A program made the translations under genes and the position numbers. Shown here piece by piece: positions 1,283 through 58,840 of a stretch of DNA of 64,000 bases (positions are counted from its first letter, which is position 1; each line of letters starts with the position of its first letter). The notes beneath the pieces were generated by a model that saw nothing but the letters and a program-made list of their open reading frames with translations, made no database searches and was not told where the DNA came from. Source of the stretch: Terriglobia bacterium. GTDB lineage: Bacteria > Acidobacteriota > Terriglobia > JAIQFV01. The stretch is from the NCBI GenBank assembly GCA_020072965.1, contig JAIQFY010000011.1, positions 14,925-78,924 on the forward strand, in the 5' to 3' direction.

Positions 1283-2524
1283 GTGCTGACAACCTTCTAT
1301 GTGCTCGCGATCCTGGTGGTAATCCAGGGTATCGTCTCGGTACTGGAGGGCGTGCACTACCATCGTTACATTTTGTCCACCTCGCGCCAAACCAGGGTCG
1401 ATGGGCCCCCGCCGCGGATTACAGTGGTCGTGCCTTGTAAGGGCGATGACCACGAACTGGCAGAAAATCTAAGAGCCGTCCTCCACCAGGATTCTCCGGC
1501 CTTCGAAACCATCTTCGTCACGGCTAGCGTGGATGATCCCGCCCAAACGATCTTTGAGAGACTGCGCGTCGAGTTTCCCCTGCAAATCATCAAAAGTGTG
1601 GTTGCCGGCACGAGTGACCAGCGTGGAGAGAAAGTAAATAACCTTTTGAAGGCGCTCGACCAGGCCGATCCCTCCTCAGAAGTTTTTGCCTTCGCCGATT
1701 CTGACGCCCGGCCTCCCTCCTTTTGGCTCCGTGAACTGGTCGCCCCTCTCCATGCCCCGGGAGCGGTCCCCGGCGCGGTCACGGGATATCGATGGTACCT
1801 TCCTGAACGTCGAAACCTGCCGAGTGTGCTGCGGAGTGCCTGGAACGCCGGAATTGTGACCCTGCTGGGGGCACATGACAAGAATTTCTGCTGGGGCGGC
1901 TCCACGGCTATCCGGAGACTAACTTTTGAGCGCGCTCGGGTCAGGGACTACTGGCAGCATTCCATCAGCGACGATTATTCATTGACGCAAGCCCTCCGGG
2001 AGGCCCAACTGGCTATCCGCTTTGTGCCGCAATGCCTGCTCCCCTCGAGCGGGCGTACCACCTGGCGCGAAGTCATGGAGTGGAGCACTCGCCAACTCAT
2101 CCTTACACGGATCTATTCGAATAGACTCTGGAAACTGGCCGCCGTCTCACAAACAGGCTTTACGCTTGTTGTTCTCTTGGCCATCGCGCTGTTGCCACGC
2201 GAATGGCGATTATTTTCCCCTACAAGCAGTTCTGGTCCGACCTTCTTCAACTGGATTGTCCGCCTTCCCGTGACGAGTATATTATTCATGATTTTTGTCC
2301 TTGGGTCTATTCGCGGTCTCTTCCGATGGCTTTCGGTGAGAGTCATTCTTTCGGACCATATGAAAAACCTCGACTACTTCGCCTGGGCATATATCCTGCT
2401 GCCGCCGGCAATCTCCCTCTTCAGCACATTCATTCTCTGGCGCTCGGCCATGACTCGTGTAGTGGCGTGGCGGGGCAAGGTCTACGAATTGGTCTCGTCG
2501 CGGGAAGTGAAAGTCCTGCAATGA
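1283..2524 (+). CDS. Membrane glycosyltransferase, GT2/GT21 (ceramide glucosyltransferase-like) family
   Basis: N-terminal TM helix, then ITVVVPCKGDD and D-x-D-like FADSD. C-terminal multi-TM region. Confidence 0.6.
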   Translation: MLTTFYVLAILVVIQGIVSVLEGVHYHRYILSTSRQTRVDGPPPRITVVVPCKGDDHELAENLRAVLHQDSPAFETIFVTASVDDPAQTIFERLRVEFPLQIIKSVVAGTSDQRGEKVNNLLKALDQADPSSEVFAFADSDARPPSFWLRELVAPLHAPGAVPGAVTGYRWYLPERRNLPSVLRSAWNAGIVTLLGAHDKNFCWGGSTAIRRLTFERARVRDYWQHSISDDYSLTQALREAQLAIRFVPQCLLPSSGRTTWREVMEWSTRQLILTRIYSNRLWKLAAVSQTGFTLVVLLAIALLPREWRLFSPTSSSGPTFFNWIVRLPVTSILFMIFVLGSIRGLFRWLSVRVILSDHMKNLDYFAWAYILLPPAISLFSTFILWRSAMTRVVAWRGKVYELVSSREVKVLQ

Positions 2525-2665
2525 GCACACCTCGACTCTCCGAAAGCTAACAGGGATGAGTGAGCAAATGCAGGAGGACTCGAATTTTCATTTTCCAGGT
2601 CCTCGGGTGCCTTTCTACCGGCGCTCTTCCTTGGCTTACCCTTACCGCAAGTTGAACAACGGTGG

Positions 2666-3295
2666 CTACAGCTTCCGGCACACCGCGACGCCGTCACGGA
2701 TCGGAAGAATTGTGGTGAAGAGCCTGGTTGAGGAGTAAATCAGGCGATTGAACTCCTGGATTTTTCGGGTCGATAGGTCCGGCCGAGAGCGGGCGACACG
2801 GCCACTCCAGAGGACGTTGTCGGTAATAAATAACCCTCCCTTGCGGACTCGTGGAACCGCCACTTTGAAGACATCCGGATACCAGTACTTGTCGACATCA
2901 TTGAAGATGATGTCGAAATCACCCCTCACCTGCTGGAGGAGATCCAGGGCGTTGCCGACCATCACATGGATTCTTTTTGAAACGCCGGCGCGCTTGAAAT
3001 ACCCTTCGGCTTCCTTCGCGTTCTTCGGGTTTCCGTCGGTGTAAAACACCTCGCCCCGCTCTCCCACTGCCCTCGCCAGCCACAGGGTCGAATAGCCAAT
3101 CGCGGAACCCATTTCAAAGACTCGCTTCGCGCCGGTCGCGGTCGCCAGAAGGTAGAGGACCCGAGCCACAGCCGGTCCAATAATTGGAATGGCGCGTTTC
3201 GCCGCTTCAGCTTCCATCTTCCTCAACACGACGTCCCGAGGCGGAAGCAAATCGTAGATGTAGCGTTCCACTTCGCGATTCGTAATCTCGTTCAT
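2666..3295 (-). CDS. Class I SAM-dependent O-methyltransferase (family 3, caffeoyl-CoA OMT-like)
   Basis: VFEMGSAIGYSTLWLA SAM motif I and DIIFNDVDKYWYP, typical of OMT family 3. Confidence 0.8.
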   Translation of the reverse strand: MNEITNREVERYIYDLLPPRDVVLRKMEAEAAKRAIPIIGPAVARVLYLLATATGAKRVFEMGSAIGYSTLWLARAVGERGEVFYTDGNPKNAKEAEGYFKRAGVSKRIHVMVGNALDLLQQVRGDFDIIFNDVDKYWYPDVFKVAVPRVRKGGLFITDNVLWSGRVARSRPDLSTRKIQEFNRLIYSSTRLFTTILPIRDGVAVCRKL

Positions 3296-3447
3296 CTCAG
3301 CTCCTGGTTCATGCAGGAATTTTAGAAAACCACCGCCGCAATCGCCAAACCAAAACCCGGAACGGATGACGTCAAAGGCCTTTATCCTTGAAAACTCGGG
3401 GGGGGTTCAGCGAAGGCTCTAGGTCGTTTGCGGGGGTTAACTTCCCA

Positions 3448-3951
3448 TCAATTGATCTTCCGTTTCAGCTGGTCCAGTGCCTGACGCGCCAATGCGTAAT
3501 CCGGAGCGATCTCGAGCGAGCGCTCCAGGCAGGCGCGGGCGCGTGTGTACATTTCTTTGGCAATATAGATTCGCCCGAGGTTATAGTGAGGATAATGATA
3601 GGCATCGTAGCGCTTCGCCTCGATGGCTTTTTCAAGCCACGGGACCGCCTCATCGGGACGGCCCAGATCAATCAGGTAGACGCCGATATCGTTGTAGGGA
3701 TTCCCAAAATCCGGGTCCACCCGGATGGCCTGTTTGCATTCTTCGATCGCTTCCTCGATCCGGCCCTGAAAGCTGTATGTCCAGCCCAGGAAGGTATGCG
3801 CCTCCGCCGTGGGAAAGACTTCGATGGATTCCCGGTACAGATCAACGGCTTCTTCTAAATCGCCGCTCATCTGCTTTTCATAGGCCTGTCGAAATAGCTC
3901 GACGGCCCGGACCACCTCTTCAGGATCAATTGACATAGGAGAATTCATCAT
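3448..3951 (-). CDS. TPR-repeat protein
   Basis: Repeated A..Y..A/LG..Y TPR-like helices. Probable start at the internal MMNSPMS rather than the ORF-track start. Confidence 0.65.
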   Translation of the reverse strand: MMNSPMSIDPEEVVRAVELFRQAYEKQMSGDLEEAVDLYRESIEVFPTAEAHTFLGWTYSFQGRIEEAIEECKQAIRVDPDFGNPYNDIGVYLIDLGRPDEAVPWLEKAIEAKRYDAYHYPHYNLGRIYIAKEMYTRARACLERSLEIAPDYALARQALDQLKRKIN

Positions 3952-9914: not shown

Positions 9915-10075
9915 ACCCTGAAAATACACCTGCCGAAGGCACAGCCGATGCCAACATTCCCTCTGAATGACATCCCATGACTTCCAAACTACCCTTGCCC
10001 TCGGAGCTGCTCCGCGAGGTTTCCGAATCTTTGCGGATCATGCTATAATCCGCCTCTTTTCTGTAGCTTTCTGCC

Positions 10076-44839: not shown

Positions 44840-45480
44840 TCCGGCCCCCTCTCTCGGTTCCCTCGCGGCTTCAGGTCGTAGATCCAGTCTTTTCTCTCCT
44901 CATGCCTTGTCCCCCTTGCAGGGATTTATTCTTACCCTCGAATTAGTTCCGAGAGAAGGGATTGGCCCCTTTTTGACATGAAGTCTCCGTCTTCTGATTC
45001 AACTTACTGAGAGTTTGCTGAAAATTCCATTTAATTCGACTTTCCAGGAGGAGTCCTCTCTCGACTCATAGGATATGTCCGTCTAGATAGCCAGATCACA
45101 GACAACCTGGCCCATACTCCCCTCCCCCGAGACGCCCGAAGCCCGGTATCCGCATGCTCTCAATGTCTGGGGGATTGAGTTACTCTCACCAATTCCACAG
45201 GTCGCTGTCCGGCTACGAGTAGAAGACGGTGCCTTCCACGGACTCTGCTGCCCCTGGTGCTGCAGCCAGGATCGAGACCTCCAAGAGCAAACCCGGACTC
45301 TTCCTTCCTTTGATTGCCCTTTTGGAACCATCGTGAACTAAATGATCTGAAATAAAAAGTCCGATATTTCCCTGCTAGAGGGCCAAAAAGTCCTTTAAAT
45401 CTCCTCAGCTGGATCGATATCCTGACGTCCCACACAGCCAATTTTCCATCCTCCTTTTGCAACCCTCCGATGAAACATTC

Positions 45481-45497
45481 TGTTGCACTGCAACAGT
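45481..45497. promoter_or_regulatory. 17-nt palindrome CTGTTGCACTGCAACAG (candidate enhancer-binding site)
   Basis: In the 1-kb AT-rich leader upstream of the cytochrome operon, 190 bp upstream of a sigma54-like element. Confidence 0.4.
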
Positions 45498-45670
45498 GGC
45501 ATTCCTCAGCGCCTGGAACAAGAGTTTTAAATTTCATCTAATCTGCTGATTCTAAATACTATGCTAATACAGCCTTTTCTTTGAACTCCAGACTTCATTG
45601 GCGTACGAATTGCTAATCCTATATGTGAATTTTTGCACTAAGATTCACCATTGCCAGCAGTTCGGCGCAA

Positions 45671-45686
45671 TGGCACCCGGAATGCT
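45671..45686 (+). promoter_or_regulatory. Candidate sigma54 (-24/-12) promoter TGGCACCCGGAATGCT
   Basis: Strong -24 TGGCAC. GC of the -12 box lies 12 nt after GG. About 185 bp upstream of the decaheme cytochrome start. Confidence 0.45.
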
Positions 45687-45871
45687 GATGAATCAAACAT
45701 TGAATCTGGGATGTAGCCGCAAATGATTAATGACAACTCCGGTCTAAATTGGATAGAATCTGCCCTTGCTTCCTGCTCGCCTCTTTTAAGGTCAATCACT
45801 CTCGTTGCCATTCCTGGAAACAATTTGCTTCTTTGAGCACACCACCTAGTATGAACTACAAGGAGATTACT

Positions 45872-46873
45872 ATGACCTCATTCACGGGCCCGCTGAAGGC
45901 GATCAAGATGACGCTCATCAGCGGCTTAGTGCTTGTGGGACTTGTGGGCGCCTTTTCCCTTTCCTTCTCGAAGTCGGCCAAGCCCGACAAGGGAAAGACT
46001 CCGCAAGCCACGTCGGCGAATTACAAGGCGGAGGACTATGTTGGGGCTGACACCTGCAAGACCTGCCACGAAGAGATTTACAACAATTTCCAAAAGACGG
46101 GCCACTTCAAACTGACGCGATATGGCAACTGGACGGCCGACAACAAAGGCTGCGAAGCCTGTCACGGACCGGGCAAGGCCCACGTGGATGGAGGCGGTGA
46201 TAAGACCAAGATTCATACGTTCGAGGATCAATCAGCCAAACAGATATCTGAAACGTGTCTCCGTTGCCATGCCGGAAAAGAGGAACACAACAATTTCCGA
46301 CGGGGTGAACACTGGCGGAACGATGTGAGCTGTATCAACTGTCATGCGCCCCATTCGCCAACGGCCACAGATCTTAAAATGTTGGTCCAGAAGGAACCGA
46401 TGCTCTGCATCTCCTGCCACAGCGAGATCAAAGCGCAGTTCAATATGCCTTTCCGTCACAAGGTGATGGAAAACACCACGAAGGGCAACGTGCTGGAAGG
46501 CACCATGAAGTGTACTGATTGCCATAATCCTCATGGCGGGTTTGAACAGAAGCAGGTGAGGCTGGCAACGGGAGGAGATGCCCCCTGCATGAAGTGTCAC
46601 GCCGACAAACAGGGACCCTTTGTATTCGAGCATGCGCCGTTGAGGGAGGAGGGTTGCACGATTTGCCATATCCCGCACGGGTCGAATAATCCAAAACTGC
46701 TGAAGCGCAATGAAGTCCGGATACTCTGCCTGGAATGCCACAGCAATGCGGGCACCGTGGGAGCGCCTGATACTCCGTCGTTCCATAACCAGGCAACAGC
46801 GCGATTCCAGAACTGCACGACCTGCCATGTCAAGATTCACGGCTCGAATCTCGATCGATTCTACTTCCGTTGA
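45872..46873 (+). CDS. Decaheme c-type cytochrome, MtrA/PioA/MtoA-like periplasmic conduit cytochrome
   Basis: 10 CXXCH motifs (CKTCH, CEACH, CLRCH, CINCH, CISCH, CTDCH, CMKCH, CTICH, CLECH, CTTCH). 333 aa. Signal/TM at N-terminus. RBS AAGGAG 7 nt upstream. Confidence 0.8.
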   Translation: MTSFTGPLKAIKMTLISGLVLVGLVGAFSLSFSKSAKPDKGKTPQATSANYKAEDYVGADTCKTCHEEIYNNFQKTGHFKLTRYGNWTADNKGCEACHGPGKAHVDGGGDKTKIHTFEDQSAKQISETCLRCHAGKEEHNNFRRGEHWRNDVSCINCHAPHSPTATDLKMLVQKEPMLCISCHSEIKAQFNMPFRHKVMENTTKGNVLEGTMKCTDCHNPHGGFEQKQVRLATGGDAPCMKCHADKQGPFVFEHAPLREEGCTICHIPHGSNNPKLLKRNEVRILCLECHSNAGTVGAPDTPSFHNQATARFQNCTTCHVKIHGSNLDRFYFR

Positions 46874-46922
46874 CGTGTGAGGGGCCTACACCGCTAACGA
46901 TATTTTTGGAGAAACGCACATC

Positions 46923-48932
46923 ATGAAAAATAAAATCGGATTCACGCTTTTGATCGTGCTGGGGATCGCGATGGGGGCATTGGTGGTCCGTGCACAGTCC
47001 ACTCCCCCCTCCAGCGATACGGTCCTGGGGGGTTATACCGTGACCCAGGATGCCGAGTTGGGGGTGCGGTTTTTGGGCCGAGACGGGAATGAGAATAAAT
47101 ACCGCAGCGATCTGAATTACGGCCGGGGCTTCCGGCTCTTCAACTATGATTTCCTGGCGCGATCGAAGGACGGCCACGGAGGCTTTTTTGATCTATTCCG
47201 TGTGACGGCGCTCGGCTGGGGTGGGGATCCCAACGAGTTTCTGCGCGTGGATGTCGAGAAGAACAAGTGGTACCGTTTTGATGCCACTTTCCGCCAGTTT
47301 GATTATTTCAACAACCTCACCAATCTGGCGCTGAACCAGCACCTCGCCGATAACAGTCGCAAATTCGACGATTTCAATTTGGCGCTCTTCCCTGACAATC
47401 AGCACTTCAAGTTTTACGTCGGTTACACGTTTGACAAGAGCAGTGGGAATGCGACCACGACGTACGATTACCAGCGCGATGAGTTCCCCATCCAGTCTAA
47501 AGTCCGGTCCGTGGCCAATGACTGGCGGGTCGGCTTTGATGCCAAGGTGTGGGTGTTTGACCTTTCCTTTCTCCAGGGATACCGCATTTTTAAGGACGAT
47601 ACTACTTACGTGGTTCCCTCTCTTAATGTGGGAAATAACCCGACGAATACCAGCGTCATTAATTTCTTAACGCGGGATGTGCCGTCGCGCACCCACATGC
47701 CCTTTACCCGTTTCAGTGCCCACACGCTGATCAAGAAGAAGCTGGACTTTACCGGTCGGTTCATTTACTCAACTGGGACCACCACCTATAATTTCGCAGA
47801 GGCCGTGAAGGGGGTCGATGCCTCCAACAACAACATTCTCCTGGATCTTTTCAATGGACCCGGGAGCGCCCGGCGGCCTAACGGCATTGGTGATTTGGGG
47901 GCGAGTTTCTTTGCCACCGACCGTTTGACCATCTCGGAGACCTTCCGAGTAAACACTTTCCGCATTTCGGGCGGGTCGAACGTCTTCGAATCGTTGTTCC
48001 GCACTCGCACGACGGCATTTGGAACAACTACGCTTCCTCCGACTTTCATTTCCTCCCTGATCTTCGAACTGGTCGGATATCGTTTGTTCTCCAATTACAT
48101 TGAGGGGGACTACAAGTTCAGTCCAAAATTCTCCGGACATGTCGGTTATCGATATACGTCGCGGCGGGTGGAGTTGGGTACCTCGATTCAACCGCCTTTG
48201 GGAACGGCGCTCGATACCGACACCCAGTTCAACCACACCAACTCGGTGGTGGTGGGGTTCAAAGCACGCCCCGCTTCCATCTGGACCGTCTATTTTGACT
48301 TTGAGCGTGGCACGGCGGACAACGTGTTCACGCGGCTCTCCAATTACAACTACACCAACTTCCGCGTGCGCACCAGTGTCAAGCCGACAAAGACCCTGAC
48401 ATTTAACGCTTCCCTGGTGACCCGCGACAACAACAACCCCGCCCTCACCCAGGGGGGTCAGAACTTCGGTGTTGATGCCAAGGGGCGGATCTTTAGCGCG
48501 TCAGCGGATTTCAGCCCCAACTCGAAATTTACTTTCACAAGCGGCTATACCTATAACCGCCTTACCTCCGATTCCTCTATCATCTTTTTCCTCGGGGGCA
48601 TCCAGACCACAGGAACCAGCTTGTATTTCCTGAGGGACCATTACTTCTTTTTCAATTCCCACGTCCAGCTCCATCCTCGAGTGGGCCTTTTCTTCGGCTA
48701 TCGCATCGAGAAGGACACCGGCCAGGGAGACCAGGTTGCGAGTTCGCCGAGCCAGTTGATTTCGTCCTATCCGTTGCAGTTCCACTCACCCGAGGTTCGG
48801 TTGACTTTCAAACTGCTTGAGCATCTGGATTGGAATGCCGGGTTCCAGCGGTATGATTACAAGGAGAAATTCCTGAACAACCAAAACTACCGAGCGAATT
48901 TGCCTTACACTTCGCTTCGGCTCTACTTCTGA
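46923..48932 (+). CDS. Outer-membrane beta-barrel protein, MtrB/PioB-like porin partner
   Basis: Signal peptide. 669 aa, rich in alternating aromatic/Gly/Thr/Asn. C-terminal ...SLRLYF. Translationally adjacent to the decaheme gene. Confidence 0.65.
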   Translation: MKNKIGFTLLIVLGIAMGALVVRAQSTPPSSDTVLGGYTVTQDAELGVRFLGRDGNENKYRSDLNYGRGFRLFNYDFLARSKDGHGGFFDLFRVTALGWGGDPNEFLRVDVEKNKWYRFDATFRQFDYFNNLTNLALNQHLADNSRKFDDFNLALFPDNQHFKFYVGYTFDKSSGNATTTYDYQRDEFPIQSKVRSVANDWRVGFDAKVWVFDLSFLQGYRIFKDDTTYVVPSLNVGNNPTNTSVINFLTRDVPSRTHMPFTRFSAHTLIKKKLDFTGRFIYSTGTTTYNFAEAVKGVDASNNNILLDLFNGPGSARRPNGIGDLGASFFATDRLTISETFRVNTFRISGGSNVFESLFRTRTTAFGTTTLPPTFISSLIFELVGYRLFSNYIEGDYKFSPKFSGHVGYRYTSRRVELGTSIQPPLGTALDTDTQFNHTNSVVVGFKARPASIWTVYFDFERGTADNVFTRLSNYNYTNFRVRTSVKPTKTLTFNASLVTRDNNNPALTQGGQNFGVDAKGRIFSASADFSPNSKFTFTSGYTYNRLTSDSSIIFFLGGIQTTGTSLYFLRDHYFFFNSHVQLHPRVGLFFGYRIEKDTGQGDQVASSPSQLISSYPLQFHSPEVRLTFKLLEHLDWNAGFQRYDYKEKFLNNQNYRANLPYTSLRLYF

Positions 48933-49234
48933 GCGATGCCAATTACGCTCGAGGTAAAACCATTGGACCAAGAAGGATTATTCTTATCGATAAACTCTAG
49001 ATGTCGCGCCTGCAACGATCCGTGATACGGACGCGGACACATCGACTTCGGAAGCTGATCGTCCGATATTTTAAACAGCCACTCCTGCAGGGGGCTGCAC
49101 CTTAAGTCAAGGAGGTAGAAAACCATGGCCATGGCAGATTATGACAATGACCCCTAACCTATAGGTTGCCGATTTTTTTCGTCTACATTTGTGAAAGCAT
49201 TCACATGACGTTAACGTCAGAAAGGATCATTTTT

Positions 49235-50194
49235 ATGGTAAAGAAGCTCATATTAGCATTTACGTTCTTACTTGTTCTTGCAAGCCTATCTTTGGCCGCC
49301 AATCCCACTCCGGCACCGCTCAATGTCCCGACCTACAACTATTCGGAGTCGAATGGCTGTCCGAGTTGTCACTTCTCGTCGGGAACGGCAGGCGATCACA
49401 TGATGGAAGCGGTCGGCATGAGTATCGACAAGGGCAACACTGCTTTCACGCTCTCTGGCAGTGGCTGGCGTGCATCCCGGCATGCTCAATCCAACCATGG
49501 GTCCACGCAAAATACCTTCTGTGCAAAATGCCACTCTCCTCTTCAAGCCACACCTCAAGCGACCTTTAACAATGGGTTCCTGGAGAACACGGCGTTGATC
49601 GCTGATGGCCAAATGGAAGGTGTCACCTGTGCGGGGTGCCATCCGCCCCACGCCACCGTTCCTCGCCTTGGGATTTACCATTTCGGTCAGGACAAGACCA
49701 AGGCATCATCGTACACATTGATTCAGGAAGATGAGCAGGACCTGCTTTGCCTCAACTGCCACGTCAACCGACACAACGAGACCAACACTGCCTTTAAGCG
49801 GATGTACGACGCCGGCGTGCAGTGCACGGATTGCCACATGGCTCGCTATGGATTGACCAACAATGGTCAGGGTACAGTCCAAAAGCGCTTCCATGATTTC
49901 AAGGTGGCAGAGAATCTACCGTATTCCTGCGGTGTCGACGGGGCGGTTTCTGGATTCCGGTGCCATCCCGGCTTCAGCACAGAAGCAACTCTCGCCTTCC
50001 TGCCCTTCCTGAAGGAGCAGCACAGCGATTGGTGGCCTCTGACTCAGAGTGCCGGCAAGAGAGGCAATGCGACGGCTACTAGGACCCTGGCAACACCGGC
50101 CGATTATATGGACCTCTGGAAAGAGATCCAGAACGGGACTACCCGGGTGCAGAGCGAAGCGAAACGAGTGGATCGAACTCAAGCTGCCCAGTAA
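49235..50194 (+). CDS. Secreted pentaheme c-type cytochrome
   Basis: Sec signal MVKKLILAFTFLLVLASLSLA. 5 CXXCH motifs (CPSCH, CAKCH, CAGCH, CLNCH, CTDCH). RBS AAAGGA. Confidence 0.8.
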   Translation: MVKKLILAFTFLLVLASLSLAANPTPAPLNVPTYNYSESNGCPSCHFSSGTAGDHMMEAVGMSIDKGNTAFTLSGSGWRASRHAQSNHGSTQNTFCAKCHSPLQATPQATFNNGFLENTALIADGQMEGVTCAGCHPPHATVPRLGIYHFGQDKTKASSYTLIQEDEQDLLCLNCHVNRHNETNTAFKRMYDAGVQCTDCHMARYGLTNNGQGTVQKRFHDFKVAENLPYSCGVDGAVSGFRCHPGFSTEATLAFLPFLKEQHSDWWPLTQSAGKRGNATATRTLATPADYMDLWKEIQNGTTRVQSEAKRVDRTQAAQ

Positions 50195-50238
50195 ACTTTT
50201 GATTCGCTTGACGGTAGCATTCTGAATTCTATTTGTCT

Positions 50239-50299
50239 GGGCCGCGTGGAAATTGAGGGAAGGCGACCCTTCATCATTTCTTTTGCGGCCCTTTTTTAT
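50239..50299 (+). terminator. Rho-independent terminator-like hairpin GGGCCGC...GCGGCCC followed by TTTTTT
   Basis: Outer 7-bp stem plus inner GAAGG-CGAC-CCTTC stem, then a T-run. 45 bp after the pentaheme gene stop. Confidence 0.5.
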
Positions 50300-50372
50300 T
50301 GCAAAAATGTGAATTTATTCACAAGTAAGTCGTGCCATTGATTTCAAACTCAATCATAGGAGGTAGTACTAA

Positions 50373-51161
50373 ATGGACTCATCAAATAGAAGACGTTTTG
50401 TTAAGAACGTGGGTGGAATCGCGATCGGTGCAGTCGCTGGGTCCGGGGTTACCCGGCTCCTTTCTTCGGACGAAGCGCCACTTGCGATTCCGGCTTTGCC
50501 TTGGCCTTATGTGGATTTGGATCCGATTGCAGTAGCCGAGAGAGCGTACCTGGGTTATTCCAACGGTGGGTGCATGTACGGGGCATTCGAGGGAATTATC
50601 GGGGAGTTACGTACCAAGCTGGGAGCACCATTCGATACCTTTCCTACCACCATGATGAAATACGGTGGCGGGGGGGTCGCCGGTTGGGGCAGTCTCTGTG
50701 GAGCGTTGAATGGCGTCGCGGCAGCCATTTATCTTTTGAAGGATTCAAAAACCGGAAATGATCTGATCAGTGAAATCTTTAACTGGTACGGAGTAGAAAA
50801 GCTCCCAAATTACCGACCAAAAACCCCGAAGTTTGAAATTGCAACCACTATTTCGGAGTCCCAGTTGTGTCATGTGTCTGTCACCAAGTGGGCTAATCAC
50901 ACGGGTTTCAAAACGGGCTCTCCCGAGCGCGCTGAAAGATGTGCGTGGCTCACTGCTTCTGTCGCCAAGTACACCACAGAATTGCTGAACAAGCAGCTCG
51001 CCGGGACTTACCAGCGGGCGCACCAAACCCCCGCGAAGGTTACTCTGTGTTTGCAGTGCCATGGACCCAGCGGCACGGTAGCCAATGTCCATATTACCGG
51101 GGGTCAAAGTAACTGCACCTCGTGTCATCATCGACACTGGGCTGGAGGAGTCGAGTTCTGA
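50373..51161 (+). CDS. C_GCAxxG_C_C family redox protein with C-terminal diheme c domain (split-Soret cytochrome-like), Tat signal
   Basis: SNRRRFVKNVG twin-arginine leader. Cys pattern C...CGALNG...C...C. CLQCH and CTSCH at the C-terminus. RBS AGGAGG. Confidence 0.65.
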   Translation: MDSSNRRRFVKNVGGIAIGAVAGSGVTRLLSSDEAPLAIPALPWPYVDLDPIAVAERAYLGYSNGGCMYGAFEGIIGELRTKLGAPFDTFPTTMMKYGGGGVAGWGSLCGALNGVAAAIYLLKDSKTGNDLISEIFNWYGVEKLPNYRPKTPKFEIATTISESQLCHVSVTKWANHTGFKTGSPERAERCAWLTASVAKYTTELLNKQLAGTYQRAHQTPAKVTLCLQCHGPSGTVANVHITGGQSNCTSCHHRHWAGGVEF

Positions 51162-51287
51162 TTCTTCACATGGGTCAGGAAGGATTAAAGAAGGGCGAAG
51201 GATCCCGAACACACTCATAGCAGTAGGGCGGATCCCCTACCTTCTCCCCGATCCTGGCCCGAAACCTCCGGCTTGATCTTCAGGGAT

Positions 51288-51348
51288 GGGCCGCGTTCGA
51301 ATTTGATGGAAGTTACATTCTATCGATTCGATCCGGCCCCTTTTTTCT
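51288..51348 (+). terminator. Terminator-like hairpin GGGCCGC...CGGCCCC followed by TTTTTT
   Basis: Same GGGCCGC/GCGGCCC-Tn architecture as at 50239 and 51831. Confidence 0.45.
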
Positions 51349-51409
51349 CTTCGAATGGTTCTGAATATCGCGCCATGTCAATTGAGGGGTCGCCAACGTA
51401 GTGCCTCTG

Positions 51410-51786
51410 TTGAATCCGTCGATTGCCACATGGCTCCGTATGGACTGACCAACAACGGCCAGGGAACGGTGCGGAAGCGCTTCCATGATTTCAAGGTGGC
51501 CCAGAATCTTCCCTATTCGTGCGGGGTGGATGGGTCTGTGAATGGATTTGTTTGCCACGCGGGATTCAACACAGAATCGGCTCTCGCCTTCCTTCCCTAC
51601 ATGAAGGAGCAGCACAGCGACTGGTGACCGGTAAACTCAAGCACCGGCAAGAGGGCCGCGAGCACAGCCGTGGGTGCGCTGCAGACTCCAGAAGATTACA
51701 TGGCACTCTGGAAGCGAATCCAAGATCGAGGCGGACAACTCCCGCTTAAGCACAAGCAAGTTGACCGGAAAGCGATTCATCTCTAG
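51410..51786 (+). pseudogene. Degenerate 3' fragment of a paralog of the pentaheme cytochrome gene (in-frame TGG TGA stop, first heme Cys lost)
   Basis: SVDCHMAPYGLTNNGQGTVRKRFHDFKVAQNLPYSCGVDGSVNGFVCHAGF...KEQHSDW* aligns with 49835-50194 of the intact gene at about 80% nt identity. TGGTGG has become TGGTGA. Homology continues after the stop and through the terminator. Confidence 0.7.
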
Positions 51787-51830
51787 CAATCATACATAAT
51801 CTACGCACGACATTGGATTTAACCACTTTA

Positions 51831-51888
51831 GGGCCGCATCGGGATGGTAGGCAGGCAAACTGCCGACATCCCCTTGCGGCCCTTTTAC
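51831..51888 (+). terminator. Terminator-like hairpin GGGCCGC..(GGCAG-GCAAA-CTGCC)..GCGGCCC followed by TTTT
   Basis: Duplicated together with the gene fragment. Paralogous to the 50239 terminator. Confidence 0.45.
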
Positions 51889-51934
51889 ATTCAGTCTTAC
51901 CCTCAATCTGCAACGCGCCGCATGTAACAAATCC

Positions 51935-51946
51935 GTTGCATGCAAC
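51935..51946. promoter_or_regulatory. Perfect palindrome GTTGCATGCAAC (second copy)
   Basis: The 14-mer CCGTTGCATGCAAC is identical to the one at 33819-33832. Lies 118 bp upstream of a sigma54-like element. Confidence 0.4.
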
Positions 51947-52052
51947 CGATCATTAAAACTCTAAGAGTACCCAAAATGGGACGAATTGTCCTGATCTTAT
52001 ACAGTCAATGGGACTTAAATTCCAGGTGGACAAATGAATCTTTTCACATGAA

Positions 52053-52068
52053 TGGCAGGGGAAGTGCC
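52053..52068 (+). promoter_or_regulatory. Candidate sigma54 (-24/-12) promoter TGGCAGGGGAAGTGCC
   Basis: GG to GC spacing is 12 nt. About 175 bp upstream of resB. Confidence 0.35.
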
Positions 52069-52228
52069 CTATCCGATTATGGAGAAAGATGCTTAGAAAG
52101 GATTCATGAGGGTGCGACTTTGGTACAAATGGACAGTTCGCGGTTTAGGTGCATTGTCAGCCAGGTTTCTATTCCGAACATGACAGGGAAAAGGACATTC
52201 ACGCTTCACGCGCATTGATCTCTGGCAT

Positions 52229-53887
52229 TTGTCCCAGGGCATGATTGAATTCTCTATGAAATCAAACGGAAAGACACGGATGTCCAACGAAAGTTCGTGG
52301 ATTGAAGGAACAACAACTCAAGCTCCCCAGAAACTCAGTCCTACTGCCGAAAGAGGCGAGGAAAAAGCCGGGCCCGCAAATGGAGGATTTCTTGATGCTT
52401 CCATCCGTTTTCTGAGCACCGTTCGCCTGGGACTCTACCTGTTGATTATCCTCGTTGTCATCTCGTTTATTGGAACGATCATCCCCCAAAAACCGAACAC
52501 CTCTCCTGAAAACCTGCAAAGAATGTTTGCCCCCGCCAACCTCGTGCTGCTGGACCGGATTGGCATCCTCGATATTTTTCACGCCTGGTGGTTCAAGGCG
52601 TTACTGACGCTGCTCGGCCTGAACATCGTCTTCGCATCACTGGACCGCTTCTCACACGCATGGAGATACATCAGGCGCCCGGCGCGATGGCTCACCGAAA
52701 CGGTAATTCGAGCCCAGCACCAGCATGCCGAAATCCACTTCCAGACTTCCCTCGAGGAAACCGAGCGAGCGGTCAAAGGGCGGTTGAGGAAGTGCCTGGG
52801 GCATCCTGAGGAGACCGAAAGGGAGGGACGGAAGGTCATCTTTGCGCAACGGCATGTTTATTCGCGCCTGGCCGCCTATGCAATTCATCTCAGCCTCCTG
52901 GTCATCTTCGCCGGGGGATTGATCGGATTGGAATTGGGCTACAAGGCGCGGGTATCTTTGAGGGAAGGAGAATCCACTTCAAAGGTCATCCTTTTCGATA
53001 CCACGCGGAGTGTCGTGGAGGCCGCAGGGGAACCGAGGTTCCTTGAGAAGGAAATTCCCTTCACGCTTCAACTGGACAAGGCCGAAGTCGTTTTTAACAA
53101 CCCCAAAGACTCCAGCCTTCTCCACCGCGATGACATCCAGAGTCCCGGTGTGGTGAAGAACTGGTACTGCACGATGTCTGTTTGGGAAAATGGGGTCAAG
53201 CAAAGCACCCAGGTGGTGGCGGTGAACCAACCGCTTTCGCACCGGGGATTCCGGTTCTTTCAAAGTGGTTTTGATTTCGGGAACGGACTGAAGGAATTTA
53301 CATTTCAGGTTCGTTTGAAGGGGGCGGGCGGACAATCCTCTGAAGCCGTTTACAAGGTTCGAAAGGGGGACTCCTTCGAGATCAAAGACGCCCACCTGGT
53401 CGCCACGCCGGTGCGGTCGGGAATCATGCCGCAAGCCGATCTGCCCTTTGTATTTCTCAGCCTCCAAAGCAGCGATGGGAAGCCCCCTCTCCAGCTGCCG
53501 GTCTTCGACGAGCCCACGACCCAAAAAATGCGCCAGGGGGCGAACGATGCATCGCCGCTTCCTAAACCTCCTGATGGGATGGAGATTTTTCTGATCGACG
53601 CCACCCCGGAGTTCTCGACGACCCTTCAGGTCTCGCGTGATCCCGGAGTTAACACGGTGTGGGCGGGATGCATTCTCCTGATGTTGGGATTGATGGTGGC
53701 CTTTTACTTTTCGCATCAACGGGTGTGGGCCCTGTTGATTCCCGTTGAGGACGGCACGACGGTCGTCCTTGGCGGTGATTCCAGCAAGAACCGATCTGCT
53801 TTCGCAAGAAAATTTCAGCATCTTGTCGACTTGATGGGGCCACAGGAAGAAGCCTCCCCCGTGAGGCAGGATTTCAAGGAGAAGTAA
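52229..53887 (+). CDS. resB: Cytochrome c biogenesis protein ResB/CcsB (system II)
   Basis: N-terminal TM after FLDASIRFLSTVRLGLYLLIIL. Large periplasmic domain. C-terminal TM. Immediately followed by ccsA. Confidence 0.85.
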   Translation: MSQGMIEFSMKSNGKTRMSNESSWIEGTTTQAPQKLSPTAERGEEKAGPANGGFLDASIRFLSTVRLGLYLLIILVVISFIGTIIPQKPNTSPENLQRMFAPANLVLLDRIGILDIFHAWWFKALLTLLGLNIVFASLDRFSHAWRYIRRPARWLTETVIRAQHQHAEIHFQTSLEETERAVKGRLRKCLGHPEETEREGRKVIFAQRHVYSRLAAYAIHLSLLVIFAGGLIGLELGYKARVSLREGESTSKVILFDTTRSVVEAAGEPRFLEKEIPFTLQLDKAEVVFNNPKDSSLLHRDDIQSPGVVKNWYCTMSVWENGVKQSTQVVAVNQPLSHRGFRFFQSGFDFGNGLKEFTFQVRLKGAGGQSSEAVYKVRKGDSFEIKDAHLVATPVRSGIMPQADLPFVFLSLQSSDGKPPLQLPVFDEPTTQKMRQGANDASPLPKPPDGMEIFLIDATPEFSTTLQVSRDPGVNTVWAGCILLMLGLMVAFYFSHQRVWALLIPVEDGTTVVLGGDSSKNRSAFARKFQHLVDLMGPQEEASPVRQDFKEK

Positions 53888-53890
53888 ATC

Positions 53891-55375
53891 ATGAGTCGTG
53901 TTCATACCGGACCATTGACCGAAGGTGACGGGGCAGCACAGAAGAAGATACTTTGGCCGATGCTCTCCAGTGTTCTTGGGATGGTGCTGCTGGCGTTATT
54001 TGTGATCCCGAACATTCTCAAGAGCGGGGCCGGATTGATGAGTCCGGGAGCCCTGCTCAGTCTGGCCATCATTTTTTACGTCGGCTCCTCGGCCTTGCTG
54101 ATCAGCTATCTGCTGCGGCGCGTGGAGCGTCTCCTCCAGGTGGCCAAAGGGTTGATACTGGTGGGCTTCATCTTTCACACCGGTGCCATCGTCGCCCACT
54201 GGATGGTCGCAGGACGTCCGCCCATTTCAAACATCTTTGAAATGCTGATCAGTTTTGCCTGGGCCCTCATTGCCCTGGATTATGTTTTCCAGCGAATCTA
54301 TAAGCTCAAGATCCTCAGTTCGTTCAGTGTCCCCATCGCCACCCTGGCAGTATTGCTTTCGACTATCCTGCCTGCGGACCCGGAGCGAACACTGCCCCCG
54401 GCACTCCAAAGTGTGTGGCTATACATCCATGTCACCTTTGCGATTTTCAGTTATGTCGCCTGTGCCATTGCGTTTGTGGCTTCAATCCTCTACCTCGTCA
54501 AAGACCGCGTGAAGCTCGAGACTTTCGGAATGATCACACAGGCCCTCACGGTCACGACCATCGCGGGGATTGACTGGCTGGGAAATGCGGACACGGCCCA
54601 CCGGCACTTCAACATCCTGCTGCGGGGTGAGTTCTTCCTCAGCCTCCTCTACAAAGGACGTGAGATTGCCATTCCAGGGATGGAAAAGACTTACCTGGTC
54701 GCGGGACTGCCCTTTGCCGGCAACGCCTTGCGGGTCTCCCTTCTGGTAGCCGTCATCGGACTGGTCCTGTACCTGGCAAAAGCCTCTTCGAAAACTCTGC
54801 TCCGGGTGACCCAGTTGGGATTTCTCGCACAGCTGGCATCAGTGGCCGTCATTCTGGCCGCGACACTCAGTAACTCGACGCAGCAGATGATCGACAGGAT
54901 TCCCGGACAAGTTCTGGGCCAGTTTGACGCGGCGGCCCTGGCGAAGGCGGCCACGGTCAGCATCAAATCCATTCCATTCATCTTTGCGGGACTCCTCGTG
55001 GCGCTGGTCACCACACTGTTATTTCTTATCTTGCACTCCCGGCATGAGGCCATTGTATCTTCGCTCCCCGATGGCAAGCTGCTGGACGAGGTCAATTACA
55101 AGGTCGTCACCATCGCGTTTCCATTACTCACCTTGATGATTGCCACGGGAGCCTTCTGGGCCAATCGCACCTGGGGTTCTTACTGGAACTGGGACCCCAA
55201 GGAAGTGGGGGCTCTGATTACCTGGCTGGTTTATGCAGCCTACCTGCATATGCGCATCGTTCGCGGCTGGGCCGGCCGGCGAGCCGCCTATTTCGCTATC
55301 ATCGGTTTTGTGTTTGTCCTCTTTACGTTCATTGGGATTAGTTATCTGCTCCCGGGCCTCCATGCGTACGCTTGA
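53891..55375 (+). CDS. ccsA: Cytochrome c-type biogenesis protein CcsA/ResC (system II heme lyase), long form (494 aa)
   Basis: Multi-[28 protein letters not shown] is the Trp-rich WWD heme-handling motif. Confidence 0.85.
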
Positions 55376-55488
55376 TCGAGACATCGCACGGTGGAATTCA
55401 CCCCGGGCCTGAGAGCGCATCAAGCTTCATCCTCTTGCAGGATGAGGGTCGTCCGGTTCTTCAAATTACTCATCAAGGAGATGTCCGG

Positions 55489-55594
55489 CATGAAACTCAT
55501 GAAAATGCTGATCTTCATCTTCGCCACCGTAATGCTTTCAATCACCCTGCTGTATGACAAGGCGATACACAAAGAAAGAGGGGAAGCCTTCTAG
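55489..55594 (+). CDS. Possible small hydrophobic peptide (34 aa)
   Basis: MKLMKMLIFIFATVMLSITLLYDKAIHKERGEAF is a single predicted TM helix between ccsA and the CDF gene. Speculative. Confidence 0.2.
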
Positions 55595-55830
55595 CCACTG
55601 CCATCTGAAATACAACAAGACATTGAATGACGTGGGCACGTGTTATGCAAAGAATCACAATCTCTCCGACTGCAAGGCGCCGGAGGCAAAGTAGGCGAAG
55701 GGCATTGGACTGTCGGGCTGCATTGGAAGGCAAGGGCTTGAACGCGATTCGCGCTGGATGGAGCCCGGCGCAACGTGTTCGGGCGGAAATGTTTTTGGGG
55801 AAGGAAATGATCTCCCTGGAGTGAGACAGG

Positions 55831-56718
55831 ATGGACGGGACCAGAGAAAAAAAAGTCGTTGCTCTGACCTCTCTGGTGGCTGCCGTTTTGCTCACCCTGT
55901 TCAAAGCCATCGTGGGAGTGGCGACTGGAAGCCTCGGAATTTTGTCTGAAGCGGCGCACTCCGGACTCGATTCTGCCGCAGCGCTGATGACCTATTTCGC
56001 GGTTTCGATTTCAGCCAAACCTGCCGACGACTCCCACCACTATGGACATGGAAAATTCGAAAGTTTCTCAGCGCTCTTTGAAGTGGTCCTGCTGCTGCTC
56101 ACCTGCTGCTGGATTATCTACAGGGCCGCCTATCGCCTGGCCGGCCACCGCGTGGAGGTGGAAGTCAATGTCTGGAGTTTCGCGGTGATGGGCATTGCCA
56201 TCGTGGTGGACATCACTCGCTCGCAGGCCCTGATGCGGGTGGCCCGGCGTTACGGAAGTCAAGCCCTGGAAGCCGATGCGTTACATTTTCAAAGTGATAT
56301 CTACAGCTCGCTCGTCGTCATCTTCGGACTCATTTTCACCAAGGCGGGCTTCCCGGTCGGCGATCCATTGGCCGCCCTGGGTGTTTCTATCCTCGTCATG
56401 ATCGCCTCTGTCAGGTTGGCGATGCGATCCAGCCAGGTGTTGTTGGATCGTGCCCCCTCGGGGGTCGAGGATCATATTCGCAAGATTCTCACTTCGTTGC
56501 CCCGGGTCCTGGAAGTTCGAAAAATACGGGTGCGCGATGCGGGAACGCAGATGTTTGTCGACGTCACGATTGCGGTCGATGGCCATATGTCACTGGACGA
56601 ATCACACGCGGTGGCAGATGAATCAGAACGCCAGATCGCCGCGGTGATCTCCAATGTGGATGTGACGATCCACGTCGAGCCGGCGACTCAGGCCTTGTTT
56701 CTGAATGAACGACCTTGA
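55831..56718 (+). CDS. Cation diffusion facilitator (CDF) family metal efflux transporter
   Basis: GSLGILSEAAHSGLDSAA, HYGHGKFE and a C-terminal cytoplasmic domain. Length 295 aa. Confidence 0.85.
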   Translation: MDGTREKKVVALTSLVAAVLLTLFKAIVGVATGSLGILSEAAHSGLDSAAALMTYFAVSISAKPADDSHHYGHGKFESFSALFEVVLLLLTCCWIIYRAAYRLAGHRVEVEVNVWSFAVMGIAIVVDITRSQALMRVARRYGSQALEADALHFQSDIYSSLVVIFGLIFTKAGFPVGDPLAALGVSILVMIASVRLAMRSSQVLLDRAPSGVEDHIRKILTSLPRVLEVRKIRVRDAGTQMFVDVTIAVDGHMSLDESHAVADESERQIAAVISNVDVTIHVEPATQALFLNERP

Positions 56719-56815
56719 AATGGTATGGCTGAAGGAGGCTTTCACCCGGTGGCCACTCTTCCGGGTTTATCCCCGCTCAGGAAATCCGGCTACTCTTAGC
56801 CCATTGGATCTGACC

Positions 56816-58840
56816 ATGAAAATTCGTCCCTTACAATTACCGGGTCTGCGATCTGTCCGGTTCATCTTTCCTTTGTTTCTCTTTCTCTTAATGATCTCCT
56901 GTTCCGCGGCCTGGGGAGCAGTCAAGAGCTCTGAATGTCTGAGCTGCCACGCCATGGAGGGGTTCCAGTCTCCCGGTGGAATGAATCTGTATGTCGACCA
57001 AAAGCGATTTGAGAAGAGCGTCCACTCCTTCTTGAATTGCACGGATTGCCACTCTGACGTTTCAAAGACACCGCATGCTTCCCAATTGGCCAAAGTGAAC
57101 TGCGGTACCTGCCACGAGGAACAACAGAAAAAATTCGCGTTGTCGATTCATGCGGGAAAAGTGATTCACAATCCTTCCGACGGGGGAAACGGAAAGAAGG
57201 CGTTCACGTGCGCGGACTGCCATAGCCCTCATACGATTCTGCCGAAGAGCGATCCGGCCGCTGCCACCCATCACACCAACGTGCCCGCCCTTTGCGGCAC
57301 CTGCCATCAGAACCTGCAGTTTGTTATTGAATCGCCCATGGCAGAAACCTCCAAGCCTTTTTTCGCCTACCGGGAAAGCGTCCATGGAAAATCAGTGGCG
57401 GCGGGATCGGAGCGGGCCGCGGTCTGTTCCGACTGCCATAACGCTCACGACATCTTGCCGCCCAACAACCCGAAATCCACGATCTTCAAAACCAACACTC
57501 CCGAAACATGCAGAAGGTGCCACGAAAACATTTACGCCGAGTACAGCGATTCCGTGCATGGAAAAGCGGTGAAGCGGGGGCTTTTCAACGCCCCGGTCTG
57601 CGTGGACTGCCACGGAATCCATTCCATTAAGTCACACATTGATCCGAGGTCGAACGTGGCGGCCCAGGTCATTTCGCGATCCACATGTGGGCAGTGCCAT
57701 TCAGGAGAGAAACTCTCTGCCGAGTACGGCGTCCCCGAGAATCGAGTCTCCTCTTATTTTGCAAGCTATCACGGCCTGGAGAGCCGGGTGGGATCGGTTG
57801 AAACGGCCAATTGCGCCAGTTGTCACGGGGTGCATCACATCCTTCCGTCGGGCGACCCACGGTCCACGGTGAACAAAGCCAACCTCGCACAAACCTGCGG
57901 GCAGTGCCATCCCGGGGCCAGCGAAAATTTTGCCAAGGGTCGCATCCATCTGCTGAAAGGACAAGGGGATGCTATCGGCGGACGGATCATAACGGCTGTC
58001 ACCCAGTTTTACGTTTGGCTGATATTCCTGGTGGTGGGGGGAATGATTATTCACAACGCGATTGATTACTTCGCCCGGGCCCGCCTGCGATTGCGTGAGG
58101 ATTTGCTGCATGGGAAGGCCACCATCGAGCGAATTCACTTGAGCGGCCGTATCCAACACGGAATTATGTTGTCGAGCTTCATCCTGCTGGTCATAACCGG
58201 ATTTGCGCTGAAGTTTCCCGACGCTCAGTGGGTGCATGCCCTGTTCCTCGGAAATGCCGCTGTCCGCGGCGTGGTCCACCGCATCGCCGCTGTAATTTTC
58301 ATCGGCCTCGCCTTCTTCCATCTCTATTTCATCCTCTTCACGAAAAAGGGCCGGCAGGAATTGAAGGCCTGGCTTCCCCGGCTTCAGGATGTCCGGGACA
58401 TGCCCCTGATGATCAGCTATAACCTGGGACTTACAAATGAACACCCCCGATTCGATCGCTTCGGCTATGTGGAGAAGATGGAGTATTGGGCGCTGGTGTG
58501 GGGCACCCTCATCATGGTGGCCACCGGACTGGCGCTGTGGGCGAAAACCTTCGTCCTGTTTTACATCCCAAAATGGGGTCTGGATGTCTTTGAAGTGATT
58601 CACTACTACGAGGCCTGGCTTGCCACGCTTGCCATCATCGTTTGGCATCTCTATATGGTCCTGATGCGACCGGGTTCGTACTCGTCGAGCTGGATGTGGC
58701 TGACCGGAAAGATTACCCGCGAAGAAATGATTGAGGAGCATCCCCTGGAATGGGAACGGATGGAACGCGAATCAAGGTCAGCCGAGAATGCCGAAAAAGA
58801 GGAGGCACAAGAGATCCCTCAACCTGCCCGTTCGACATAA
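56816..58840 (+). CDS. CbcL-like fusion of an 11-heme c-type cytochrome and a dihaem cytochrome b (FdnI/HydC-like) membrane domain
   Basis: Signal/TM, then 11 CXXCH arranged in paired repeats. C-terminal 5-TM region with conserved His (HNAIDYF, HGIMLSS, HRIAAVIF, WHLYMVL). Confidence 0.75.
   Translation: MKIRPLQLPGLRSVRFIFPLFLFLLMISCSAAWGAVKSSECLSCHAMEGFQSPGGMNLYVDQKRFEKSVHSFLNCTDCHSDVSKTPHASQLAKVNCGTCHEEQQKKFALSIHAGKVIHNPSDGGNGKKAFTCADCHSPHTILPKSDPAAATHHTNVPALCGTCHQNLQFVIESPMAETSKPFFAYRESVHGKSVAAGSERAAVCSDCHNAHDILPPNNPKSTIFKTNTPETCRRCHENIYAEYSDSVHGKAVKRGLFNAPVCVDCHGIHSIKSHIDPRSNVAAQVISRSTCGQCHSGEKLSAEYGVPENRVSSYFASYHGLESRVGSVETANCASCHGVHHILPSGDPRSTVNKANLAQTCGQCHPGASENFAKGRIHLLKGQGDAIGGRIITAVTQFYVWLIFLVVGGMIIHNAIDYFARARLRLREDLLHGKATIERIHLSGRIQHGIMLSSFILLVITGFALKFPDAQWVHALFLGNAAVRGVVHRIAAVIFIGLAFFHLYFILFTKKGRQELKAWLPRLQDVRDMPLMISYNLGLTNEHPRFDRFGYVEKMEYWALVWGTLIMVATGLALWAKTFVLFYIPKWGLDVFEVIHYYEAWLATLAIIVWHLYMVLMRPGSYSSSWMWLTGKITREEMIEEHPLEWERMERESRSAENAEKEEAQEIPQPARST

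Follow-up and report, generated by a model that had tools for sequence, protein, structure and literature searches.

A probable deletion remnant of a second pentaheme cytochrome gene in the cytochrome cluster of an uncultured Terriglobia bacterium

In the cytochrome cluster of an uncultured Terriglobia bacterium (Acidobacteriota), represented by a metagenome-assembled genome (MAG), we identified a short gene fragment that is very probably the defunct 3' third of a formerly complete pentaheme c-type cytochrome gene, designated P3. The promoter and the first 202 codons of this gene would have been lost in a deletion of ~0.8 kb, leaving a unitary pseudogene remnant. The fragment (51409–51786, hereafter the relic) comprises the last 125 codons of P3 and its stop codon, and it was analyzed together with the entire surrounding stretch of 64,000 nucleotides (the window). 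An earlier note on the window had described the fragment as a degenerate duplicate, about 470 bp long, of the 3' end of the neighboring pentaheme gene, P1, including its terminator. As judged by comparison with related loci, the relic is instead the remnant of P3, a separate old paralog, and not a copy of the 3' end of the neighboring gene.

The setting of the fragment is as follows. A decaheme cytochrome gene of the DmsE/MtrA family (45872–46873; TIGR03508, 252 bits, above the cut-off) is followed by a gene for a putative barrel protein of 669 amino acids (46923–48932) that has no Pfam match and only a marginal NCBIfam match, to the GSU2204 family (E = 5e-4). In relatives, too, this barrel protein invariably accompanies the decaheme, which is what one would expect of an MtrB-like porin. 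The segment that separates the barrel gene from resB, here called the slot, contains the intact P1 gene (49235–50194), whose product of 319 amino acids carries five CxxCH motifs and a Sec-type signal peptide. This product, named in the source as 'MAG: hypothetical protein LAO31_08315 [Acidobacteriia bacterium]', is the paralog with which the relic had been compared in the earlier note; a sequence search of the PDB with the pentaheme yielded only a marginal match, to NrfA (E = 0.004). A perfect TGTGA-N6-TCACA palindrome of the CRP/FNR-family type lies 30 nt upstream of P1 (49190–49205), with an equivalent at P1 of the closest relative, and the predicted terminator of P1, T1 (50239–50297), consists of a GC-clamped hairpin (50239–50291) and a T-run. 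A second perfect palindrome (50308–50323) lies 50 nt upstream of SSC (50373–51161), a split-Soret cytochrome c homolog of 262 amino acids (PF09719) with a twin-arginine signal, a C_GCAxxG_C_C domain and two C-terminal CxxCH motifs. The predicted hairpin terminator of SSC, T2 (51288–51346; hairpin, 51288–51339), which is kept in the relative with an intact P3, precedes a 12-nt deletion junction, CGTAGTGCCTCT (51397–51408), the relic itself, and T3 (51831–51886; hairpin, 51831–51882), the predicted original terminator of P3. A highly conserved noncoding block upstream of resB (51908–52100) bounds the pseudogene on the right and lies outside it; resB and ccsB follow (52256–55375, with the resB ATG at 52256). 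P1, SSC, the relic, the three terminators and the noncoding block are all on the forward strand.

The closest related locus, L051 (ENA ERZ27248002), derives from the same metagenome as the contig of the window (L001). It was located by means of its SSC protein, which is 95% identical to that of the window, and over the whole cluster it is identical to L052 (GCA_020073085.1). The gene order in L051/L052 is decaheme, barrel, P1, SSC, intact P3 and resB, with the intact P3 (L051 11211–12194) encoding a protein of 327 amino acids with five CxxCH motifs between SSC and resB. The two loci are collinear at 84% nucleotide identity on both sides of the junction, window positions 45341–51396 corresponding to L051 5005–11024 and positions 51409–56995 to L051 11817–17403. 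In the base-level alignment, the 12 junction nucleotides, which align to neither flank of the missing segment, replace 792 nt of L051 (11025–11816) in which the final 186 nt of the SSC–P3 spacer are followed by the initial 606 nt (202 codons) of P3. The TGTGA-N6-TCACA site of P3, the start codon, the signal peptide and hemes 1–4 are lost with this segment. The sequences ACGA and GTTG near both L051 breakpoints were noted by eye as candidate microhomologies, the 12-nt junction being unassignable at 16% divergence. The suggestion of the earlier note that the cytochrome region has been rearranged is correct. P3 is truncated in the window and intact in its closest relative.

At the syntenic place, the Terriglobia MAGs L005 (GCA_041490505.1) and L006/L007 (GCA_044447805.1) carry P1 (319 amino acids), P2 (344 amino acids) and P3 (327 amino acids) in tandem, followed by resB. 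The arrangement in L008 is P1–P3, and among other loci L057 has P5–SSC–resB and the more distant L009 a single copy. An intact P3 of 327 amino acids between SSC (or P1/P2) and resB is present in L051–L056, L005–L007 and L008, and in L005 and L008 the 3' end of P3 and the spacer that follows it are collinear with the relic and the sequence between it and resB. Comparison with L005 and L008 had yielded a scenario in which the SSC gene replaced P2 and the 5' end of P3; it was superseded by the order P1–SSC–intact P3 in L051, which leads to a simple deletion. The loss of P3 was judged within the 64 kb of the window, and an intact copy elsewhere in the genome would leave the identity of the relic unchanged.

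The relic is an ortholog of P3. Its nucleotide identity to the 3' end of L051 P3 is 87% without indels, slightly higher than the 84% background, and its amino acid identity to residues 197–326 of the intact L051 protein is 85% (tblastn, E = 4e-74); nucleotide identity to P3 of L005 and L008 is 75%. Outside L051, the closest match of the relic peptide was P0004, the P3 protein of L005 (74%), with 66% identity to P1 of the window. In a tree of full-length proteins, the P1 proteins of the window, L051, L005 and L008 formed one clade and the P3 proteins of L051, L005 and L008 another. Given that P1 and P3 fall into separate clades across four genomes, the duplication that gave rise to them predates these genomes.

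The terminators T1, T2 and T3 share GGGCCG...CGGCCC clamps followed by T-runs, with z scores of –4.3, –4.6 and –6.8, respectively, relative to shuffled sequences and folding energies of –28.8 kcal/mol for T1 and –41.8 kcal/mol for T3. They are the only such hairpins in the 64-kb window, compared with 0.39 expected by chance. The hairpin 3' of the relic had been recognized earlier as a GGGCCGC...GCGGCCC-Tn paralog of the one that follows P1, a resemblance that we also found; the third hairpin of this type, 3' of the split-Soret gene, did not figure in the earlier note. T1 has homologs 3' of P1 in L051, L005 and L008. T3, which ends in TTTT, is conserved 3' of the intact P3 in the same three loci, with a compensatory change in the stem from C–G to T–A in L051, and is the predicted intrinsic terminator of P3 itself. 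More generally, each gene of the slot ends in a long (~50 nt) GC-clamped hairpin of the form GGGCCGC...GCGGCC-Tn, with equivalents in L051, L005, L008 and L057. In L008, a locus without SSC, a single hairpin follows P1, and T1 and T2 can each be aligned with it.

Of the five CxxCH motifs of the family, only the fifth is left in the relic, and it reads SVDCH. The two sequence changes that had been pointed out earlier were both verified: the first heme-binding Cys, retained as C..CH in the paralogs, is replaced by Ser (TCC, 51415–51417), and a single internal TGA (51625–51627) interrupts the frame. Polarized with the P3 sequences of L005 and L008 as outgroups, the underlying substitutions, TGC>TCC at 51416 and TGG>TGA at 51627, are both derived on the relic lineage, and the columns that they strike, C197 and W267, are invariant in an alignment of 22 family sequences. 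Over its 126 codons the relic shows no indels, only this one internal stop and mostly synonymous substitutions. We counted 12 synonymous and 10 nonsynonymous substitutions on the relic lineage versus 16 and 5 on the intact L051 lineage; this difference was not significant (Fisher p = 0.20), but its direction is the expected one and suggests relaxed constraint on the relic lineage. On the assumption of ~3:1 nonsynonymous to synonymous sites, the counts suggest, as a rough estimate with a wide error, that neutral evolution of the relic may account for about the most recent fifth of the time elapsed since its lineage and that of L051 separated. Pairwise dN/dS was 0.17 between the relic and L005 P3, compared with 0.15 for a pair of intact P1 orthologs. 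The low value for the relic would be explained by a recent deletion; continued constraint would also fit.

We next consider the expression signals. In L051, a perfect TGTGA-N6-TCACA palindrome is located 31–48 nt upstream of each of P1 (8825–8840), SSC (9938–9953) and P3 (11165–11180), the last of these lying inside the segment deleted from the window. Four matches with at most one mismatch were found in L051, three of them being these perfect sites, versus 0.57 expected by chance, which suggests that the cytochrome genes of the slot may be under a common regulator. The window retains only the palindromes of P1 (49190) and SSC (50308). With the P3 site in the deleted segment, the relic therefore has neither a regulatory site nor a ribosome-binding site, and its start codon and signal peptide are missing as well. 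Without these last two, attachment of c-type heme to a product of the relic is not possible. No sigma70-like promoter was found in 48900–52400, and Rfam gave no match at E ≤ 1 on either strand of 49000–52400. Scans of the open reading frames of the relic against Pfam and NCBIfam returned no matches, and no gene was called at the relic in any of the assemblies. The relic starts ~70 nt downstream of the strong terminator T2. Read-through fusion with the SSC gene was rejected, given that the reading frames differ and that T2 and ~250 nt intervene. The relic is probably not expressed.

The similarity of the fragment to P1 on which the earlier note was based is real and far above chance. BLASTN gave E = 2e-53, and pairwise alignment, the check that the note had proposed, confirmed identity above background, with 51421–51653 matching 49829–50061 at 79% over 233 nt, ungapped and at an offset of 1592 nt. 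The codon-by-codon correspondence also held, the relic running in one frame from 51409 to a TAG at 51784–51786 without frameshifts, and homology extends beyond the internal stop (DYMALWKRIQ). This ungapped core and the similar GGGCCGC...GCGGCCC hairpins 3' of P1 and of the relic would fit an old local duplication of ~470 bp from the 3' end of P1 and its terminator, since diverged to ~80%. That identity, however, applies to the 233-nt core; identity to P1 is 65.6% over all 124 codons and 45% over the last 43, whereas this tail is 84% identical to the intact L051 P3. The core itself is 78% identical to P1 versus 89% to L051 P3. P1–P3 core identity lies between 70% and 80% in every genome pair compared, within as well as between genomes, and the 78–79% observed here therefore needs neither a local duplication nor gene conversion: a value of about 80% around heme 5 reflects the normal conservation of old paralogs in this protein region. 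On the same ground, we ruled out that P1 and the relic owe the 79% core to gene conversion. Furthermore, four related loci contain a full-length gene whose 3' end is collinear with the relic, and the left boundary of the relic is that of the 792-nt deletion seen against the closest relative. Synteny and the matrices of core and tail identity thus argue strongly against a local duplication of the 3' end of P1, which we consider highly improbable. What stands of the proposal of a gene-fragment relic of an old duplication is that the fragment is nonfunctional, that it is a paralog of P1 and that the paralogy is old; it is not a ~470-bp copy of the 3' end of P1.

Given that the source is a MAG and that the L051 population with an intact P3 co-occurs in the metagenome of the window contig (ERZ27248002), a mis-join or a base error might have produced the truncation or the TGA in a genome whose second gene is actually intact. 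The junction and the relic are, however, 100% identical in L001 (ERZ27248002), L002 (Logan, SRR15677233) and L058 (ERZ27248265), three metagenome assemblies from two assembly pipelines, and the junction is placed in unique spacer sequence rather than in a repeat. Divergence from the co-occurring L051 is the same on both flanks (84.0% and 84.3% identity), and the contig is therefore not a chimera of the two populations; nor would a mis-join yield two additional disabling substitutions at invariant residues. An assembly chimera or sequencing error was rejected on these grounds, and such an origin appears scarcely credible. The possibility, raised in the earlier note, of a full-length second gene was thus borne out in relatives, by the intact P3, whereas the stop did not prove to be an error, truncation and stop being the same in all three assemblies. 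A retained function is likewise extremely unlikely. A small transcript or peptide, a product with the TGA recoded as selenocysteine, or a role as spacer and terminator insulating the resB control region might be proposed from the lack of indels with one stop in 126 codons, from the low pairwise dN/dS to P3 orthologs, from the intact and very stable T3, and from the strongly conserved regulatory block that begins ~20 nt 3' of T3. Against this, the relic lacks a start codon with signal peptide, its sole remaining heme motif is broken, the strong T2 lies upstream with no promoter-like site found, and a recent deletion accounts for the low dN/dS. The roles that had been suggested earlier, as an alternative 3' module or a small RNA, found no backing: no sigma70-like promoter and no Rfam match at E ≤ 1 were detected, the strong terminator lies directly upstream, and gene callers were silent. 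Selenocysteine recoding was rejected because homologs have an invariant Trp, not Cys, where the TGA arose as a derived change, and because the open reading frame has no valid 5' end. In addition, the distant relatives L057 and L009 keep the resB control block without any P3 sequence upstream, and the relic is therefore dispensable for this block.

The reading that we favor, the remnant of a deleted P3, would imply an ancestor in which the old paralogs P1 and P3 lay between the barrel gene and resB, with the SSC gene between them and with each gene equipped with a separate TGTGA-N6-TCACA site and a separate hairpin terminator. A single deletion of ~0.8 kb in the lineage of the window, probably fairly recent, would have removed 186 nt from the end of the SSC–P3 spacer and 606 nt from the start of P3, and with them the palindromic site, presumably the promoter, and the ribosome-binding site, start codon, signal peptide and heme sites 1–4. 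The remaining 378 nt and T3 would thereby have been stranded behind the SSC terminator T2, and later decay would have added the Cys-to-Ser change in the last heme motif and the Trp-to-stop change. The fragment would have no function of its own and would simply not yet have been erased.

The fragment is a textbook truncated pseudogene, and features of this kind are already known. As in other bacterial unitary pseudogenes, the homolog is intact at the syntenic place in relatives, the relic lacks the 5' end and expression signals, additional disabling substitutions are present, and gene finders do not call it. It differs in nothing essential; it appears young, with a frame that is still free of indels and substitutions that are mostly synonymous. 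For the cluster as a whole, we looked to the extracellular electron transfer clusters of Shewanella, in which the tandem multiheme paralogs mtrC, omcA and mtrF adjoin mtrAB. The Terriglobia cluster may be likened to this Mtr family in having a DmsE/MtrA decaheme and a large putative barrel followed by one to three paralogous accessory cytochromes, with copy number varying among close relatives. The accessory cytochromes here are pentahemes of ~320 amino acids without a lipobox, whereas those of Shewanella are decaheme lipoproteins, and the barrel matches no MtrB or PioB Pfam model; the likeness is one of analogy, drawn from the genes. SSC is a homolog of the split-Soret cytochrome c of Desulfovibrio desulfuricans (PDB 1H21; E = 2e-39, residues 41–253), with which it shares the C_GCAxxG_C_C domain and the two C-terminal CxxCH motifs. 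It differs from the latter in scoring below the NCBIfam equivalog cut-off (NF047622, 192 versus 400 bits) and in being placed in an acidobacterial outer-membrane cytochrome cluster.

The gene complement of the stretch from the barrel gene to resB is different in nearly every relative, with the arrangements P5, P5–SSC, P1–P3, P1–P2–P3, P1–SSC–P3 and P1–SSC–deltaP3. In Blastocatellia loci, mostly one pentaheme gene follows the decaheme–barrel pair, and the five of these loci in which resB/ccsB could be detected have them upstream of the decaheme. It might be supposed that this stretch is a cassette-like slot in which units of palindromic site, cytochrome gene and GGGCCGC-clamped hairpin are gained, swapped and lost, that the similar hairpins and palindromes promote rearrangement, and that the relic records one such event rather than a random deletion; we regard this broader proposal as unlikely. 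Among the tandem paralogs of L005, the 3' tail (~43 codons) of P2 (9272–10306) is 94–96% identical to those of L005 P1 (8001–8960) and L008 P1 (10001–10948), with the proteins ~64% identical overall, which indicates that the P2 tail probably arose by gene conversion or has a chimeric origin. On a Desulfobacterales MAG contig (L050, JALWTY010000095.1), a pentaheme homolog (33%) is directly followed by an SSC homolog (38%) at 2278–3717, and this adjacency outside Acidobacteriota hints at a functional partnership between the two cytochromes.

In six Terriglobia loci, the block at 51908–52100 (~190 nt), between T3 and resB, exceeds the neighboring coding DNA in conservation by a wide margin. Invariant within it are the inverted repeats TGCAAC...GTTGCATGCAACCGA as well as GGACGA-TTGTCC, GGGACTTAAATTCC and TGGCAG-N6-TGC. 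The last of these, at 52053–52067, has the –24/–12 spacing of sigma54 promoters, with the GG and TGC invariant and the spacer variable. The block resembles a sigma54 promoter preceded by activator sites and would serve the cytochrome biogenesis genes resB–ccsB.

For annotation, 51409–51786 should be labeled as a pseudogene fragment of the second pentaheme paralog; calling it a gene, duplication or RNA should be avoided. No open question hinges on the relic, which is an ordinary and probably fairly recent remnant that marks a variable cytochrome slot. The accessory cytochromes of this porin-cytochrome-type cluster of Terriglobia turn over quickly, being present in one to three copies with or without the split-Soret protein, and of two related populations assembled from one metagenome, one has P3 intact and the other does not. 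Such turnover could matter when electron-transfer capacity is inferred from cytochrome gene counts in MAGs.
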